A DNA stretch of 64,000 nt from Gammaproteobacteria bacterium (GTDB taxonomy: Bacteria; Pseudomonadota; Gammaproteobacteria; S012-40). The position numbers and the translations under genes are program-made. The notes below the pieces were generated by a model. That model made no database searches. It was not told where the DNA came from and saw nothing but the letters and a program-made list of their open reading frames with translations. Below, piece after piece: positions 959 through 18,732 of this stretch (the first letter of the stretch is position 1; each line of letters begins with the position of its first letter). The stretch is from the NCBI GenBank assembly GCA_029883265.1, contig JAOUJM010000001.1:10511-74510 (forward strand), read 5' to 3'.

Positions 959-1110
959 AAAGTCCATACTTTTAACATTCCCAAGCTCATCAATGATTGA
1001 CGCCATATCCTTGTTATAAGATCCAAGGATTGTCGTTGTTTTTCCCGGCTCGGTCTGAAGAATTACCCCGGATGATGCCTGATGGTTTAGCGTTTTGTCT
1101 GGAACAACTT
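959..1110 (-). pseudogene. Truncated duplicate (toxin fragment Q) of the first 50 codons of cassette P. It begins with the VVPDK junction and is cut by the IS110 end.
   Basis: Minus-strand translation is VVPDKTLNHQASSGVILQTEPGKTTTILGSYNKDMASIIDELGNVKSMDFG, then divergent. 959-1108 matches 1553-1703 at more than 95% nucleotide identity. Confidence 0.6.
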
Positions 1111-1304
1111 AATCGGTTGCACCCAAATACCAGATCATAAACTCATAGAACCCATCCCATTTTGCAGGGATTTCGCCATTCACAAAACGATCTCTAGTTG
1201 CTAGCTCAAAGTCCCAGACCCTGCCTGTAATCTTGTCATACAAATAGCAACCTTCTCCCTCTGCAGTAGTGAAGCATATATAGTTTTCTGGTACTTTCCA
1301 GATG
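1110..1304 (-). other. 65-codon open segment in frame with toxin P after an in-frame TAG. It is either the 3' part of a pseudogenised toxin or a start-less immunity gene.
   Basis: Reads GFGV-TAG-VIWKVPENYICFTTAEGEGCYLYDKITGRVWDFELATRDRFVNGEIPAKWDGFYEFMIWYLGATD-TAA, immediately followed in frame by VVPDK. There is no in-frame ATG, GTG or TTG start. Confidence 0.35.
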
Positions 1305-1306
1305 AC

Positions 1307-1700
1307 CTATACCCCAAATCCTGTCAGTTCCATTTTACCTGTTGATGTGTTTGGCCTGATCAAGACACCCAACCCTCGATTATCGATAACATCGAACCCC
1401 GGCTTAGTAGCCATGAGAATACTGTCACCTCTAGAGGTAGCAGAATTTAAGAATGGTACATTGACTTCGTTCCAAAATCCTTTTGGCCCCAGTGTTCTGA
1501 ACAACTCATCTGGCGCATTTAATACATTGAAGTTACCAGGCTTTGGACCAAAGTCCATACTTTTAACATTCCCAAGCTCATCAATGACTGACGCCATATC
1601 CTTGTTATAAGATCCAAGGATTGTCGTTGTTTTTCCCTGCTCGGTCTGAAGAATTACCCCGGATGATGCTTGATGGTTTAGCGTTTTGTTTGGAACTACC
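1307..1700 (-). CDS. Orphan toxin C-terminal module P (junction VVPNK); function unknown
   Basis: Junction motif at 1686-1700. The frame is continuous with the 96-aa ORF at 1307-1597 and has no start codon of its own. Confidence 0.5.
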
Positions 1701-1707
1701 CACTAGT

Positions 1708-2172
1708 CTACTTTGACTCTCCCCAATTAAATCTCACATCAATCCAAGACTTACCTTCCAACACTGACAATAGCTCTAAATCACTAAACAAAGAGTTCAC
1801 GAATTTCATGAATTCCCTTAACTGTTGCTCAAATTCTCCGCTATAGCTAGAAAGACTAAAAGGGCTTTGCTGAGAAATAGTACCACGCTTCTGTACCCAT
1901 GAATCCAGACTAAAGTCTTTATCTGTCTTATCATCAATCACATAAATGACAATGTAGTCGCCCTTATCCCCGAATGCTGGATAGAATGTAAATTCCACAG
2001 AAACACCATTATCACCGCTTAGCAAATACTCGTAGCTATCTCCTGCTGGCCCCTTACTTGATACATGCTTAGTGTGTTTAAGCCTAAATCCAATACTAGT
2101 TAGACTGTCTAACATCACCAAGAATGATTCAACTTTTTTGGCTTTATCTTTTACTGGTGTGGAGTTTTTCAT
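1708..2172 (-). CDS. Immunity-like protein for module O (154 aa)
   Basis: ATG overlaps the toxin O stop (TAATGA). It lies directly downstream of a toxin module. Confidence 0.5.
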   Translation of the reverse strand: MKNSTPVKDKAKKVESFLVMLDSLTSIGFRLKHTKHVSSKGPAGDSYEYLLSGDNGVSVEFTFYPAFGDKGDYIVIYVIDDKTDKDFSLDSWVQKRGTISQQSPFSLSSYSGEFEQQLREFMKFVNSLFSDLELLSVLEGKSWIDVRFNWGESK

Positions 2173-2606
2173 TACTTACTCCCTCCAAATATGGTCTGCT
2201 TCTCAACAGCATAAAATGGGCTAAAACCCTGATTATGAGGATTACCTATATCAATGATTGTGTACCCTTCAGATTCAATCTTCTGAGCCCAAGCTTTGTT
2301 CGCCTGATACATTTCAGTTTTAACAAGCTCAGGATTAGTCAACCTACGACCACCTTCGGTTAACCTCTCGAATTCTTTGCGTGCTGAACGAGGAATCATG
2401 TCACCATCAAAAAGTTCTACATCGTAGCCTTTCTTTTGGAGCACAGCAGCATAATCTCTTACACCATTGATTTTATTATTTCCCATCGCTCTACCAATCA
2501 CAGCGACTTTTCCGTTATCACCCTGAGCAATCCTCTGTGCTTTTAGGCCGTCTACTTCAAGCGATCTAATGCTACCTAAATCGAAGAGTTTCTTGTTTGG
2601 AACATC
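2172..2606 (-). CDS. Orphan toxin module O (junction DVPNK); small Rossmann-like domain, function unknown
   Basis: Junction at 2592-2606. The ORF at 2172-2501 extends upstream in frame to the junction. Confidence 0.5.
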   Translation of the reverse strand, partial: DVPNKKLFDLGSIRSLEVDGLKAQRIAQGDNGKVAVIGRAMGNNKINGVRDYAAVLQKKGYDVELFDGDMIPRSARKEFERLTEGGRRLTNPELVKTEMYQANKAWAQKIESEGYTIIDIGNPHNQGFSPFYAVEKQTIFGGSK

Positions 2607-16267: not shown

Positions 16268-16792
16268 CTATTTAAAACCATAGATGGTTTTTATTCTATC
16301 CCATGCATCAAACCGTGTAGCCAGACTACCATTTTCTCCTAATAAAACCCTATTTTCATATATGGTTCCTAGTTCTGGTTTTCCTATGCTGTCTGCAAAC
16401 TTTTGTTCAGCTAGGAATGCTCTCGCCTCAAGATAAGACTTATTAGACATATTTTTCACACCGGAAATATCATCGAAAAAGTGTTGCCCTTCATGTGCAG
16501 TAATTGTAGCAGCTCGTTTTAACCCAGTATTTCCGGTATAAATTAGATCTTGGTTTAACTCAATTTGATTTGTACCAGGAAAATACCGACCATTAAGCCC
16601 ATCTAATTTCGAATAAACAATCTCAACTTTTCCATTTTGAATAGCAGTTGCCAATTTAACTGATCTAGCATCCCCAGTTTCCAATATACGGCTAATCATT
16701 TGAGGAGAAGGCGCTTGATTTCCGTTCGCTAACCTAACTCCATCACCCCCAAACATTACTTTACTTTCTAACTGAAGGTTGTCTGGAACAAC
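16268..16792 (-). CDS. Orphan toxin module C (junction VVPDN): HExxH zinc-metallopeptidase-like domain
   Basis: Motif TITAHEGQHFFDD. Confidence 0.55.
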   Translation of the reverse strand, partial: VVPDNLQLESKVMFGGDGVRLANGNQAPSPQMISRILETGDARSVKLATAIQNGKVEIVYSKLDGLNGRYFPGTNQIELNQDLIYTGNTGLKRAATITAHEGQHFFDDISGVKNMSNKSYLEARAFLAEQKFADSIGKPELGTIYENRVLLGENGSLATRFDAWDRIKTIYGFK

Positions 16793-16814
16793 CTAATCCC
16801 AAACATCAGTCAAG

Positions 16815-17096
16815 CTAACAAACAGACTCTAGATCCTTGATTAAAACCATAACCTGATCCTGATTACATTCAACAAAGAAACTGTCGATAGTAGAAGTTG
16901 TTTGCAAAGTAATAGATTGCTTAGCTTTAAGCTTTTCTGCTAGTTCTTTTGTTACATCTTCACGATTAGAATTAGTTATATGTACCGAACACACATCCTT
17001 ACCATAAACAACCATAGCTTCGTAGGAATCTTTTAAAGACCACCATTCTCGACGATCTAAAACTCCAGCTGCCTGTTCTCTTATTAAATTAGCCAT
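16815..17096 (-). CDS. Immunity-like protein for module B (93 aa)
   Basis: Start overlaps the toxin B stop. Confidence 0.5.
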   Translation of the reverse strand: MANLIREQAAGVLDRREWWSLKDSYEAMVVYGKDVCSVHITNSNREDVTKELAEKLKAKQSITLQTTSTIDSFFVECNQDQVMVLIKDLESVC

Positions 17097-17563
17097 CAGT
17101 CTACCCTAATATTATCTGTAGAGTTGAATATGCTGCGCTGCCCAGCACTATTCAAGATCAAACTTTGACTTTGTTGCTGCCTAAATATATCCAATACCAT
17201 ACGATCCCCGGGCCAGCCTGATGCATCTAGTTTAATGTCTGTCGTTCCGGGATGAGTATGACCAGACCACTTATAGCCTTTATCAGCCAAACCTTGTAAT
17301 TCAGATTTGGTTAATGGAACACCTCCAGCATTCCCTCTAAACACTAGGCGTTGACTACCATTAGTAAACAAAGCAAACTCATCACCTGTCTTTGCCGTAA
17401 GCGCTGCCAGATCAGTCACGCTTATTTGCTTCTTATGAAGAGTTGTACTTGATAATGTATCTGGTAATTGACCCAAAACCCGTTGTTGACGCTTTGACAA
17501 ATCGCCAAAGCCCCAAGCTATTTCGCTAGGAGAACTAGCTGAAATCGTCTTGTTTGGAACTAC
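17096..17563 (-). CDS. Orphan toxin module B (junction VVPNK); GHTHP-x9-S-x4-D motif as in module M
   Basis: Hand translation VVPNKTISASSPSEIAWGFGDLSKRQQRVLGQ... continues in frame into the ORF at 17096-17500. Confidence 0.5.
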   Translation of the reverse strand, partial: VVPNKTISASSPSEIAWGFGDLSKRQQRVLGQLPDTLSSTTLHKKQISVTDLAALTAKTGDEFALFTNGSQRLVFRGNAGGVPLTKSELQGLADKGYKWSGHTHPGTTDIKLDASGWPGDRMVLDIFRQQQSQSLILNSAGQRSIFNSTDNIRVD

Positions 17564-17853
17564 ATACTAAATCCGCTTTTCCAATCACTTTTAGTAGTAG
17601 GATCCGACCTCATTTCTTCTAAGAAGAACTCACACGCTGAGCTTTCATCCTCAAAACACTCTTTGCCAGTCTGCAATCCTCTCTCACTATAATAAACACA
17701 CCACCGGCCATTTTCACAACGCAAGCACAACGCCTCGTCCTTTTGTTCCTCCTCCAATGAGTAAGAGCTAGGATTAAATTTCTCCTCACTCAACTTTCTT
17801 TGAAGATCATCTTTATTCATGCAATATCCCTCATCATTTTGTAACGCGCTCAA
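17560..17853 (-). CDS. Immunity-like protein for toxin A (97 aa, cysteine-rich)
   Basis: Overlaps the toxin A stop by about 20 nt. Confidence 0.5.
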   Translation of the reverse strand: MSALQNDEGYCMNKDDLQRKLSEEKFNPSSYSLEEEQKDEALCLRCENGRWCVYYSERGLQTGKECFEDESSACEFFLEEMRSDPTTKSDWKSGFSM

Positions 17854-18732
17854 GATATTGGTTTGCTGGATTCAAGAGCTCCTTTACTGATTTTGGCAAC
17901 TCGTATTGGGTACCATATCCAGGCATATCAAAAGCAGGTGCAGCTGGGCCAATGCGTGTATCCGGAATTTCTTGGAGAACGCGATACACATTCAAGTTAC
18001 TCACATCTGTGCCGGGACGAAGGGATAATGTTTCTGGAGTTGTTCCTAAGGGGCTTGCGAATGTACCGCGTTCATTCCCGAGACGGCCTATTAGCTGTCC
18101 AGGTTGCAATGAGCCAATCTCATCAGCACCATAAACAAAACCTTTATTCTTCGGCCAATCCCAGAACACATTTTCTGCACCATACTTGCTGGTCAAATAT
18201 TCATTCCATTGAGCGCCTGAAACTGCTCCAGTCTTGTTTGGAACACGATCACCGCCTTTATATTTTAATATACCGCCAGCAATAAAACCATATGTTAAAC
18301 CACCCAATAGCTCTGGATTCTCCCTGTTCTGCCACAAGTTCCTCAGACTTTGGACCTTTCTATCTGAAAATTCGGTACTAGTAGGAAAACCCAGCTTATC
18401 TAACTTAAAGAAACTATTAAAATTTAAAGAGAGGTCATTAAACTCTTCCCAGATATTTTTTCCTATATCTAGCAAAACCTCTAAAGTCTCATTTGTCAAT
18501 CTGTCACCAAGATCTTTATGAGCATTTAGGGTTCCTTTACTGAATCTCAATGCGTAATCACCCACATCTCCGTTTTGTTTCTGCTGGTTACTCCGGCCCA
18601 AAACAACCCCATTAATCTGATCAAGTTGCTGCATTGCCTCTTCTAAATTTTGTTGACTCTCAGAAACCTCTCCAACCCCCTCCTCCTTACTATGTCCCGC
18701 CAACGTCAATGGTAAATCCACTTCCTGGCCAT
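17834..18732 (-). CDS. Displaced native 3' end of the giant YD-repeat gene, cut off by transposon 2. It has about 190 aa of pre-toxin region, then RVPNK at 18233-18247, then toxin A (ART/TNT-like fold candidate).
   Basis: The frame across the 8-bp duplicated target continues the giant ORF in frame (GYGQ|EVDLPLTLAGHS...). Residues 1-28 of the track ORF (MPAPVGNLHSSRLTDLKLTGKVRSLGRLH) are IRL-encoded. Confidence 0.7.

Follow-up and report, generated by a model that had tools for sequence, protein, structure and literature searches.

A short DNA connector bounds the toxin/immunity cassettes behind a giant Rhs-LysM gene, and IS66-family elements at the same locus carry toxin tips

Here we describe a stretch of 64,000 nucleotides of an uncultured gammaproteobacterium (contig JAOUJM010000001.1 of assembly GCA_029883265.1; the whole stretch is referred to below as the window, and positions are counted from its first letter). 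Judged by its sequence, it holds a polymorphic-toxin locus of the Rhs-LysM family. A giant gene on the minus strand, the carrier, is followed on its 3' side by an array of about 15 start-less toxin/immunity cassettes, arranged head-to-tail in one orientation, and two insertion sequences (IS) of the IS66 family and one of the IS110 family are present within or beside these genes. The sole sequence common to the unrelated modules of the array, as evaluated by blastn and by information content, is a connector of 11-14 nt. The main features, with open reading frames abbreviated as ORF, are the following.

21847-41001, minus strand: present giant ORF, 6,384 codons, with RHS/YD repeats, DUF6531 and LysM (Pfam)
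22840..41001, minus strand: 5' part of the giant gene (the carrier), 6,054 codons, with RHS_repeat, DUF6531 and LysM
18733..22839: IS66b, 4,107 bp, within the giant gene, with TnpB_IS66 and DDE_Tnp_IS66 (Pfam)
17834..18724, minus strand: native 3' end of the giant gene and toxin of cassette 1, with 160 pretoxin codons, the connector and a 136-codon TNT (NAD+ glycohydrolase-type) toxin
6847..10500: IS66a, 3,654 bp, without target duplication, with TnpB_IS66 and DDE_Tnp_IS66
1..956, minus strand: IS110-family element with DEDD_Tnp_IS110 and Transposase_20 (Pfam), with a transposase that continues past the window edge

The two halves of the 6,384-aa product of the giant ORF match RHS_repeat with E=2.5e-68 and 5.2e-47. 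After the last LysM domain the carrier has one transmembrane helix, a Gly/Ala-rich region and a variable linker, with about 650 residues between this LysM and the C-terminus. The tail of the present ORF consists of LysM, one transmembrane helix, the Gly/Ala-rich region and a lipase domain with the motif GHSLGG, and the next gene encodes ankyrin repeats. When IS66b is excised together with one copy of its target duplication, an ORF of 6,350 codons is obtained in frame, which ends with ...YNGYGQ, then EVDLPLTLAGHS...KYKGGDRVPNK, then TGAVSGAQW..., and continues into the TNT toxin. This restored end contains the connector in frame, as CGT GTT CCA AAC AAG at 18234-18247 (GGDRVPNK). Since removal of IS66b restores the frame, this connector is the native joint between pretoxin and toxin of the expressed gene, and the array lies directly 3' of it. 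The in-frame insertion of IS66b has thus replaced the tip of the giant gene. A preliminary description of this DNA, made from the sequence alone, had noticed the array and had missed both the in-frame connector of the giant gene and the fact that the transposon brings a tip of its own, a start-less lipase toxin with an ankyrin immunity gene.

The Rhs-LysM architecture was found in 78 loci across Proteobacteria in a genome scan, typically with ~600-780 residues after the last LysM. The DPxGL motif is absent from the toxin boundary of the giant gene, and the only two DPxG[LI] matches are internal, at residues 2657 and 3331. No two-partner secretion (TPS) domain, filamentous haemagglutinin repeats or VENN pretoxin motif is present in the window according to Pfam, and no PAAR, VgrG or type VI secretion genes were found in the carrier or its scanned neighbours within the 64 kb.

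All 17 junctions listed in the preliminary description are present, on the minus strand and in one orientation. The sequence TTGTYTGGAAC, which had been attributed to all of them, has 13 exact matches, all on a single strand, against 0.11 expected (shuffles, largest 2), and no match in the window outside 1095-18244. As for the other four junctions, those at 3307, 4056 and 12526 differ at the first base, and the one at 10501-10509 is cut to GTAGTTCCA, with the IS66 inverted repeat beginning at 10500. Read on the minus strand, a core GTTCCARACA is invariant in 16 of the 17 junctions, between 1105 and 18244. The information content is restricted to positions -3 to +10 (GTW GTT CCA RAC AA), which encode V-V-P-N/D-K, and positions -8 to -4 show a weak stop-codon signal. 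No inverted copies exist in the window, and the opposite strand shows no enrichment. The claim that the modules share the junction only was borne out, as blastn found no longer upstream homology between unrelated modules. The longer repeats detected when the array was compared with the window are limited to the two IS66 copies, a 33-nt repeat (10468-10500 = 22808-22839) that corresponds to the right inverted repeat of the IS66 elements, and a 152-nt duplication (957-1108 = 1548-1699) bounded by the connector.

The connector occupies a precise place between cassettes. Downstream of each junction there is an open frame of 129-184 codons without an early start. In 14 junctions the toxin frame has a stop 1-7 codons upstream of the connector, and junctions 18244 and 6460 are preceded by 160 and 128 open non-IS codons, respectively. 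In 11 of 14 cassettes the stop of the immunity ORF lies -1 to +4 nt from the next GTTCCA, and in 6 of those 11 its TAG is located within GTAGTTCCA of the next connector.

Several simple origins for the motif were considered and rejected. The end of the LysM region, ...IIIPNVV, is not its source, as the DNA there (ATT CCG AAT GTT) fails to match. Judged by reading the sequence, the motif is not a DNA-uptake sequence, because it is restricted to the array, nor a translational re-initiation signal, because it has neither a start codon nor a Shine-Dalgarno sequence, nor a target of IS110, because the IS110-family element sits 150 nt from a connector. We also observed that connector positions -1 and +6 are associated: GTT/TTT...CCAG occurs six times, GTA...CCAA six times and T with A four times, and the combination of A with G occurs never in the window and once in Marinobacter. 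As all four combinations exist overall, they could reflect crossovers within the connector.

The individual cassettes are given below, with predicted toxin frames in codons and candidate immunity ORFs in amino acids.

17560..17853, minus strand: candidate immunity gene of cassette 1, with its TAG inside the next connector, homologous to the gene that follows TNT in Marinobacter
16793..17563, minus strand: cassette 2, connector 17550-17563, 154-codon toxin, 93-aa immunity ORF 16815-17096
15794..16792, minus strand: cassette 3, connector 16779-16792, 173-codon toxin (HEGQH motif), 156-aa immunity ORF
14677..15793, minus strand: cassette 4, connector 15780-15793, 166-codon toxin, ORFs 15057-15293 and 14677-15075
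13541..14676, minus strand: cassette 5, connector 14663-14676, 137-codon toxin, 237-aa immunity ORF
12536..13544, minus strand: cassette 6, connector 13531-13544, 184-codon LHH nuclease toxin, 149-aa immunity ORF
11593..12539, minus strand: cassette 7, connector 12526-12539, 170-codon nucleotidyltransferase-type toxin, 142-aa immunity ORF
10501..11596, minus strand: cassette 8, connector 11583-11596, 142-codon toxin, 220-aa immunity ORF
5676..6846, minus strand: pretoxin fragment and cassette 9, connector 6450-6463, 139-codon toxin, 127-aa immunity ORF
1708..5661, minus strand: cassettes 10-14, connectors 5648-5661, 4786-4799, 4056-4069, 3307-3320 and 2593-2606, toxins of 143-174 codons, immunity ORFs of 73-154 aa
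957..1699, minus strand: cassette 15, connector 1686-1699, toxin truncated at 1307, without immunity gene
957-1108, minus strand: second copy of the cassette 15 start, 152 nt, connector 1095-1108

The sequence data support the earlier proposal that start-less toxin modules are arrayed in this region and that an immunity-type gene follows each of them. Three of the cassette toxins have Pfam matches (TNT, LHH nuclease and NTP_transf_2), and in each of 14 cassettes the toxin is followed by an immunity-sized ORF of 73-237 aa with its own start. A search with the concatenated cassettes showed that homologues of the cassette toxins form the C-termini of long Rhs proteins. The proteins P0010, P0012 and P0014, which combine RHS and LysM and are 3,300-4,000 aa long, have cassette-toxin domains at their C-termini; homologues of the cassette 2 toxin are the C-termini of the Rhs proteins P0011 and P0014, those of cassette 4 are the C-termini of P0012 (Rhs-LysM) and P0013 (Rhs), and the Rhs-LysM protein P0010 ends with a homologue of toxin 4066. 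Of the 15 start-less toxin frames that lie 3' of the main gene, 13 are full length (137-184 codons). Sigma-70-like sites are depleted in the array (25 vs 45 expected), which fits a promoter-less array without proving it.

The array is therefore real, and the count of about 17 cassettes given in the preliminary description needs adjustment at two places. Firstly, the modules at 1696 and 1105 are one and the same; the second copy is broken by the IS110-family element, and the module at 1696 has no immunity gene. A full-length homologue of this cassette, together with its immunity gene, is present in a Marinobacter locus discussed below; the window copy has 131 codons, compared with 175 in that homologue, and has lost the immunity gene, and about 200 nt between it and its duplicated start are non-coding (window 902-1108, 1307-1699). 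Another contig of the same population, L005, adds 520 nt past the window edge (IS110 at L005 7219-8694), and the array may continue beyond this edge. Secondly, the module after 10509, which had been counted as a cassette, is cargo of an IS66 element. Cassette 8 ends with the terminal half-connector GTAGTTCCA (10501-10509), and the right end of IS66a abuts the connector exactly after this sequence. The left flank of IS66a is foreign: it is a 128-codon pretoxin fragment, cut by the element and dissimilar to the pretoxin of the main gene, which by its sequence belongs to a different carrier gene. Since IS66a has no target duplication, it must have been rearranged, and its two flanks, a cut connector and a foreign pretoxin fragment, indicate that the present array is probably two arrays united by an IS-mediated rearrangement.

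A scan of related genomes, as recommended in the preliminary description, revealed the connector elsewhere. In the intact Rhs-LysM genes of Microbulbifer rhizosphaerae (L029) and of a gammaproteobacterial metagenome-assembled genome (MAG; L046), the motif is in frame (RRVPND and KAVPDN, respectively), 159 and 183 codons from the gene end, which is the boundary between pretoxin and toxin. Variants are found at this boundary in locus L078 (GTT CCA AAT) and locus L058 (GTG CCA AAT). In addition, L078 has a full connector, TGA TAG ATT TTT GTT CCA AAC AAG, after its single immunity gene; this terminal copy heads only 27 codons, which are followed by housekeeping genes. No further large connector array was found in the 78 Rhs-LysM loci. 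An apparent orphan in L058 proved to be spurious, k-mer screens for junctions in GC-rich loci gave mostly noise, and viral contigs, scanned with the 17-nt connector, contained 36 isolated matches, taken to be due to chance, and no arrays.

The most informative relative is a CdiA locus on a MAG scaffold of Marinobacter (L001), which holds both the TNT cassette and the 1696 cassette of the window. At 5000-14400 it contains a CdiA of the TPS/Fil_haemagg type, three copies of GTTCCARACAA, and orphans with long pretoxin fragments; the constant region of this CdiA ends with ...GGEHVVP. The TNT cassette of L001 has the connector at the toxin head. Its DNA homology with the window cassette begins just inside the toxin domain and stops just past the downstream connector; a stretch of 20 nt that takes in the immunity stop is identical there, and the sequences diverge beyond it. 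For the 1696 cassette, the homology between both genomes begins at the connector. The alignments thus show that cassette homology between genomes begins or ends at the connector.

The same comparison shows, at the level of sequence, that the connector is constrained as DNA, in different genera and in carriers of both the Rhs and the CdiA type. All 15 independent copies read GTT CCA xAC, for which P is ~1e-21 given the codon usage of the window. Between the window and Marinobacter cassettes pS is 0.68-0.78 and pN 0.10-0.19 (pN/pS about 0.13-0.26), which means saturation at synonymous sites and purifying selection on the proteins; even so, GTTCCA is retained at all synonymous sites in the two connectors on either side of the shared TNT cassette. 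These data bear directly on the possibility that V-P-N/D is only a linker or processing motif of the protein, and that the array is a fossil of successive displacement events which is kept for its immunity genes. Some observations are in line with such a motif: V-P-N recurs with other codons at the boundary in L058 and L078, the motif lies at most 2 residues from the start of the conserved toxin domain, and a hydrophobic, basic stretch precedes it in all five long contexts, namely the two long window frames, the Marinobacter TNT orphan, and the main genes of L029 and L046. Moreover, it is established that orphan immunity genes are expressed and of use (PMC3150448). We nevertheless consider this explanation improbable. 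The codon invariance far exceeds what protein constraint would require when flanking synonymous sites are saturated, and a protein motif cannot explain why a connector in L078 heads only 27 codons or why a copy cut to 9 nt persists at 10501-10509. A fossil array would not be expected to retain nearly all its start-less toxin frames at full length, and the low pN/pS values indicate that the toxin parts are still maintained.

Other loci of this family use other junctions. The second Rhs-LysM locus of the MAG that holds L046, L049, has a different 11-mer, AGTACAAACGG (STNG), at 11141, 13009 and 14793; one copy lies in the main gene, and the other two stand after stops at the heads of orphans. When the preceding T is included (TAGTACAAAC), one substitution and a 1-nt indel separate this junction from the window connector in its GTA form (TAGTTCCAAAC), and the reading frames of the two differ, giving STNG and VVPN, respectively. 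A Sphingomonas locus (L072) has an unrelated short junction, GCCGTAGAGAG.

The relation between these junctions raises the question whether a dedicated site-specific recombinase, encoded at another place in the genome, acts on the connector. Such an enzyme would excise cassettes as circles and insert them where the expressed gene has its connector, in the manner of an integron or of a shufflon with direct repeats. Each cassette has a single connector, the immunity stops lie tidily at it, and a connector also follows the only immunity gene of L078; the invariance lies at the DNA level, a related core is read in two frames, and some copies have a 5-bp palindrome in their core (TTGTT-CCA-AACAA). 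The sfx sites of shufflons are likewise short and asymmetric, and they lie within a coding region. All these features would suit a recombination site. However, the scanned ORFs of the window, which include a minority of the small ones, yielded no integrase or recombinase other than the IS66 and IS110 transposases. No recombinase was found beside the cassette of L078, whose neighbours are housekeeping genes, and no recombinase family is among the Pfam families of the called genes of L001. In addition, inverted copies of the motif are lacking, 12 junction regions fold in an attC-like manner no better than shuffles (z -1.4 to +2.3), and L072 uses an unrelated junction. Rfam and tRNA scans of the window were empty. 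We therefore regard a dedicated recombinase as unlikely. The presence of different connectors in different loci, such as the window and L049, fits homology-based matching better than a single recombinase site. The preliminary description had left three routes open for the exchange of tips, namely displacement by incoming tips, very short homology and an undescribed site-specific process. The last gained no support, given the missing recombinase, attC-like structure and inverted copies, and the first is visible at the locus itself, in a form borne by a transposon. The features of the two IS66 elements are as follows.

18817-19173, 19140-19523 and 19554-21044, plus strand: tnpA, tnpB and tnpC of IS66b
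21847..22839, minus strand: cargo toxin of IS66b, a start-less lipase domain (GHSLGG)
21095..21823, minus strand: candidate immunity gene of IS66b, with ankyrin repeats Ank_2, Ank and Ank_4 (Pfam)
6931-7290, 7278-7634 and 7647-9185, plus strand: tnpA, tnpB and tnpC of IS66a
9748-10500, minus strand: cargo toxin of IS66a, start-less, 250 codons, lysozyme/SLT-like, starting with VSVQNSAPRK in the inverted repeat
9194-9748, minus strand: cargo partner of IS66a, a 184-aa ORF

A perfect 8-bp target duplication, CTGGCCAT, borders IS66b on both sides (18725-18732 and 22840-22847). The right inverted repeats, GTAAGCGTCCAAAACTCTGCCCC on the minus strand, start at 22839 and 10500, and the left ones, GTAAGCGTCC[C/T]AAACTCCGCACC, are located at 18733 and 6847. 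The inverted repeats agree at 19 of 23 positions, and the target duplication of IS66b lies outside them. The lipase frame of IS66b starts within the right inverted repeat (VSVQNSAPGK) and now forms the C-terminus of the giant ORF; homologues of the lipase belong to Pfam PF26363, and some of them are fused to VgrG, PAAR, LysM or RHS-associated proteins. The cargo domain of IS66a has 2,024 relatives, one of which matches Phage_lysozyme2 and SLT (Pfam) over the same stretch and another of which is the C-terminus of an RHS-repeat protein. The lysozyme/SLT assignment of this cargo accordingly relies on homologues, as searches of PDB and NCBIfam gave no match and a single-sequence AlphaFold model was unusable (pLDDT 34.5).

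Known members of the IS66 family such as ISPpa5a and ISPpa7 are 2.7-2.8 kb long and generate an 8-bp duplication (PMC3281130). The window elements resemble this family in possessing tnpA, tnpB and tnpC, in inverted repeats that start with GTAAGCG and, for IS66b, in the 8-bp duplication. They differ from usual members in that 1.3-1.8 kb of passenger DNA lies between tnpC and the right inverted repeat: this repeat is located 1,315 and 1,795 nt past the tnpC stop in the two elements, compared with ~45 nt in a conventional relative in locus L048, and no internal copy of it exists between tnpC and the element end. On a metagenome contig (L087; Ga0224506_10003679) the first 99 nt are 100% identical to window 22741-22839. 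This match takes in the right inverted repeat together with 76 nt of lipase frame, and the flank there is a CRISPR array. The foreign flank implies that the toxin start moves together with the IS end, and that the same IS66 element occupies a second site. The CRISPR array of L087 has a 28-nt repeat, GTTATCCGCTGAGTACGCGGTTTAGAAA, and the neighbouring ORFs were judged, by size alone, to be type I-F-like cas genes. On contig L088 (186-736) there is a third IS66 copy, which is truncated, stands in an unrelated context and shares 87.5% identity with the left end of IS66a.

We found no literature precedent for polymorphic-toxin tips borne by IS elements or for IS66 elements with such passengers, within a partial coverage of the literature. 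It is quite possible, if a little short of an even chance, that this IS66-family "toxin-tip transposon" is an undescribed mobile element; if so, the in-frame insertion of such an element re-arms a polymorphic toxin gene in one step. The sequence VSVQNSAP was not found in any retrieved protein, so that there are no further fusions of the repeat peptide among them, and the nearest plasmid TnpC is only 41% identical.

The location of cargo at the ends of IS66 elements also invites the thought that the connector itself is a degenerate IS66-like end, and that the cassettes were delivered serially by tip-carrying transposons whose transposase parts were later lost. Both elements hold their toxin and immunity cargo just inside the right inverted repeat, the IS66 repeat and the connector share position and orientation relative to the toxin, and IS66a ends exactly after the GTTCCA of a connector. 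Furthermore, when the stop region is included (TAAGTAGTTCCAAAC), the connector matches the left inverted repeat (TAAG-CGTCCCAAAC) at 12 of 15 positions with one gap, a similarity equalled by only 0.16% of shuffles. On the other hand, this resemblance was noticed post hoc, and that to the right inverted repeat is not significant (15% of shuffles). No transposase remnants or left ends lie between the cassettes, which are packed stop-to-connector, and inverted copies of the motif are again missing. The three known insertion sites of the IS66 element have no sequence in common, and no IS66-like element was seen in the connector loci L078 and L001. Such an origin of the connector is therefore very improbable.

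It is instructive to compare the locus with known systems. A scheme in which toxin-immunity cassettes recombine at the 3' tip of a constant gene body has been formulated (Zhang et al. 2012, PMC3482391). For contact-dependent growth inhibition (CDI) systems, Poole et al. 2011 (PMC3150448) describe orphans that have only the VENN-encoding sequence in common with cdiA, and modules whose homology extends "precisely" between successive VENN sequences. They also report that Yersinia pestis Microtus has lost 3,557 bp, by which an orphan became joined to cdiA, and propose recombination between VENN-encoding sequences as a way of switching tips. The statement in the preliminary description that the junction is far shorter than in CdiA systems was overstated, since CDI orphans with only VENN in common exist (PMC3150448). 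Like CdiA orphans, the cassettes of the window are start-less toxin fragments with immunity genes, head-to-tail downstream of a full gene; cassettes are common to CdiA and Rhs carriers, as illustrated by the two window cassettes in Marinobacter; and module homology is bounded on both sides by a short motif-encoding sequence. Unlike in CdiA, the carrier is of the Rhs/YD-LysM type and not a TPS exoprotein, the motif is VVP(N/D)K and not VENN, and no conserved pretoxin domain precedes it, as there are at least four unrelated upstream contexts. Moreover, all cassettes here are trimmed to the motif, whereas CDI orphans retain variable upstream sequence, and the connector often incorporates the stop codon of the immunity gene before it. 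By analogy, we regard the connector as the functional analogue of the VENN-encoding sequence, in a carrier family without the classical Rhs DPxGL boundary.

With classical Rhs systems (orphan rhs-CT) the locus shares a YD-repeat carrier, a C-terminal toxin that varies and has its immunity gene next to it, downstream orphan cassettes and associated IS elements. It differs in lacking PxxxxDPxGL at the toxin boundary, in the ~650 residues between the last LysM and the C-terminus, and in orphans that retain 11-14 nt and not a core fragment; PAAR, VgrG and type VI secretion genes were not found in the scanned part of the window. The vlsE/vls system of Borrelia and pilE/pilS of Neisseria also consist of promoter-less cassettes beside one expression site, with short direct repeats both at the cassette borders and within that expression site, and in both a surface antigen is varied by segmental conversion between homologous cassettes. 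In contrast, the cassettes here encode toxin folds that are unrelated to one another and come with immunity genes of their own, which leaves only their borders able to pair. An integron, too, has promoter-less cassettes in a single orientation, bounded by short sequences that resemble recombination sites, the newest presumably beside the expression point. The window differs from it, as no IntI is present among the scanned ORFs, the junctions form no attC-like imperfect palindrome or fold, conservation is limited to 14 nt, and expression would be by translational fusion and not from a cassette promoter (Pc). It also differs from a shufflon, as the connectors are all direct and none inverted, and no Rci-type recombinase was found.

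Taking the above together, the reading that we favour, and hold to be moderately probable, is that tips are exchanged by rare short-homology recombination at the connector. What we infer is that recombination occurs at the connector and by which path, that the immunity genes are expressed and that the toxins are active. The connector would then be the standard joint for tip exchange, in the role that VENN-encoding DNA has in cdiA. Exchange could proceed by a deletion between the giant-gene connector and that of an orphan, by conversion or replacement through the connectors on both sides of a cassette, or by import of a foreign cassette, for which the long gene body would provide one homology arm and the connector the other. 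By each route a new toxin would be placed in frame and bring its immunity gene along, and in-frame recombinants would then be retained by selection. The immunity genes, which have their own starts, are probably read through from upstream, which would amount to stockpiled immunity. A second, separate route has left its trace at the locus: IS66b, with its start-less toxin and immunity gene, was inserted in frame and took the place of the tip.

Several points weigh against short-homology recombination as the mechanism. No recombinant has been seen: the other contigs with these genes (L005-L008 and L089-L091) are 100% identical where compared and have the same cassette order, so that the variation in order or content that strain comparison had been expected to reveal did not appear, and the mechanism stays inferred. 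A length of 11-14 nt is below the homology that RecA normally needs, which makes the mechanism conjectural; with so few identical bases, exchange events must be rare, and either RecA-independent or facilitated by homology. The immunity stops close to the connector look more like the outcome of cassette insertion at a defined site. The two connector types, one indel and one substitution apart and read in different frames, hint at a DNA site with a common core. For this last reason, the connector may be a true DNA recombination site and not mere microhomology, a reading that we put at somewhat less than even. Finally, an IS66 element now separates the array from the expressed tip, and exchange at the connector would also need to remove this element.

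The remainder of the window contains genes of other kinds. Upstream of the giant gene (41186-46089) are a gene for a small TPR protein and ORFs of 491, 310 and 424 aa, of which only the 424-aa one has a Pfam match (DUF6973); these could be accessory or export factors for the Rhs-LysM protein. The region 47101-63964 holds a flagellar cluster (FliP, FliO, FliN-like, FlgE/F/G-like, FliI and FliF), a sigma-70-family factor and TPR proteins, and appears to be unrelated to the toxin array.

Polymorphic toxins are thought to diversify by swaps of their C-terminal tips, and the joints and enzymes involved are poorly defined beyond CdiA, with VENN, and classical Rhs proteins, with DPxGL. The locus provides a clean case, in which a large array is trimmed exactly to a connector of 11-14 nt that often doubles as the stop of the preceding immunity gene, and with it the minimal requirements of tip exchange become directly testable. 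New are the motif itself, its carrier family, the uniform trimming of an array of 15 cassettes, the fusion of connector and stop, the conservation as DNA across genera and carrier types, and the cargo-bearing IS66 elements. The transposon-borne tips are the most novel part of the locus: they suggest a further route by which toxin/immunity pairs may pass between genomes and carriers, and would explain why IS elements are frequent at such loci.

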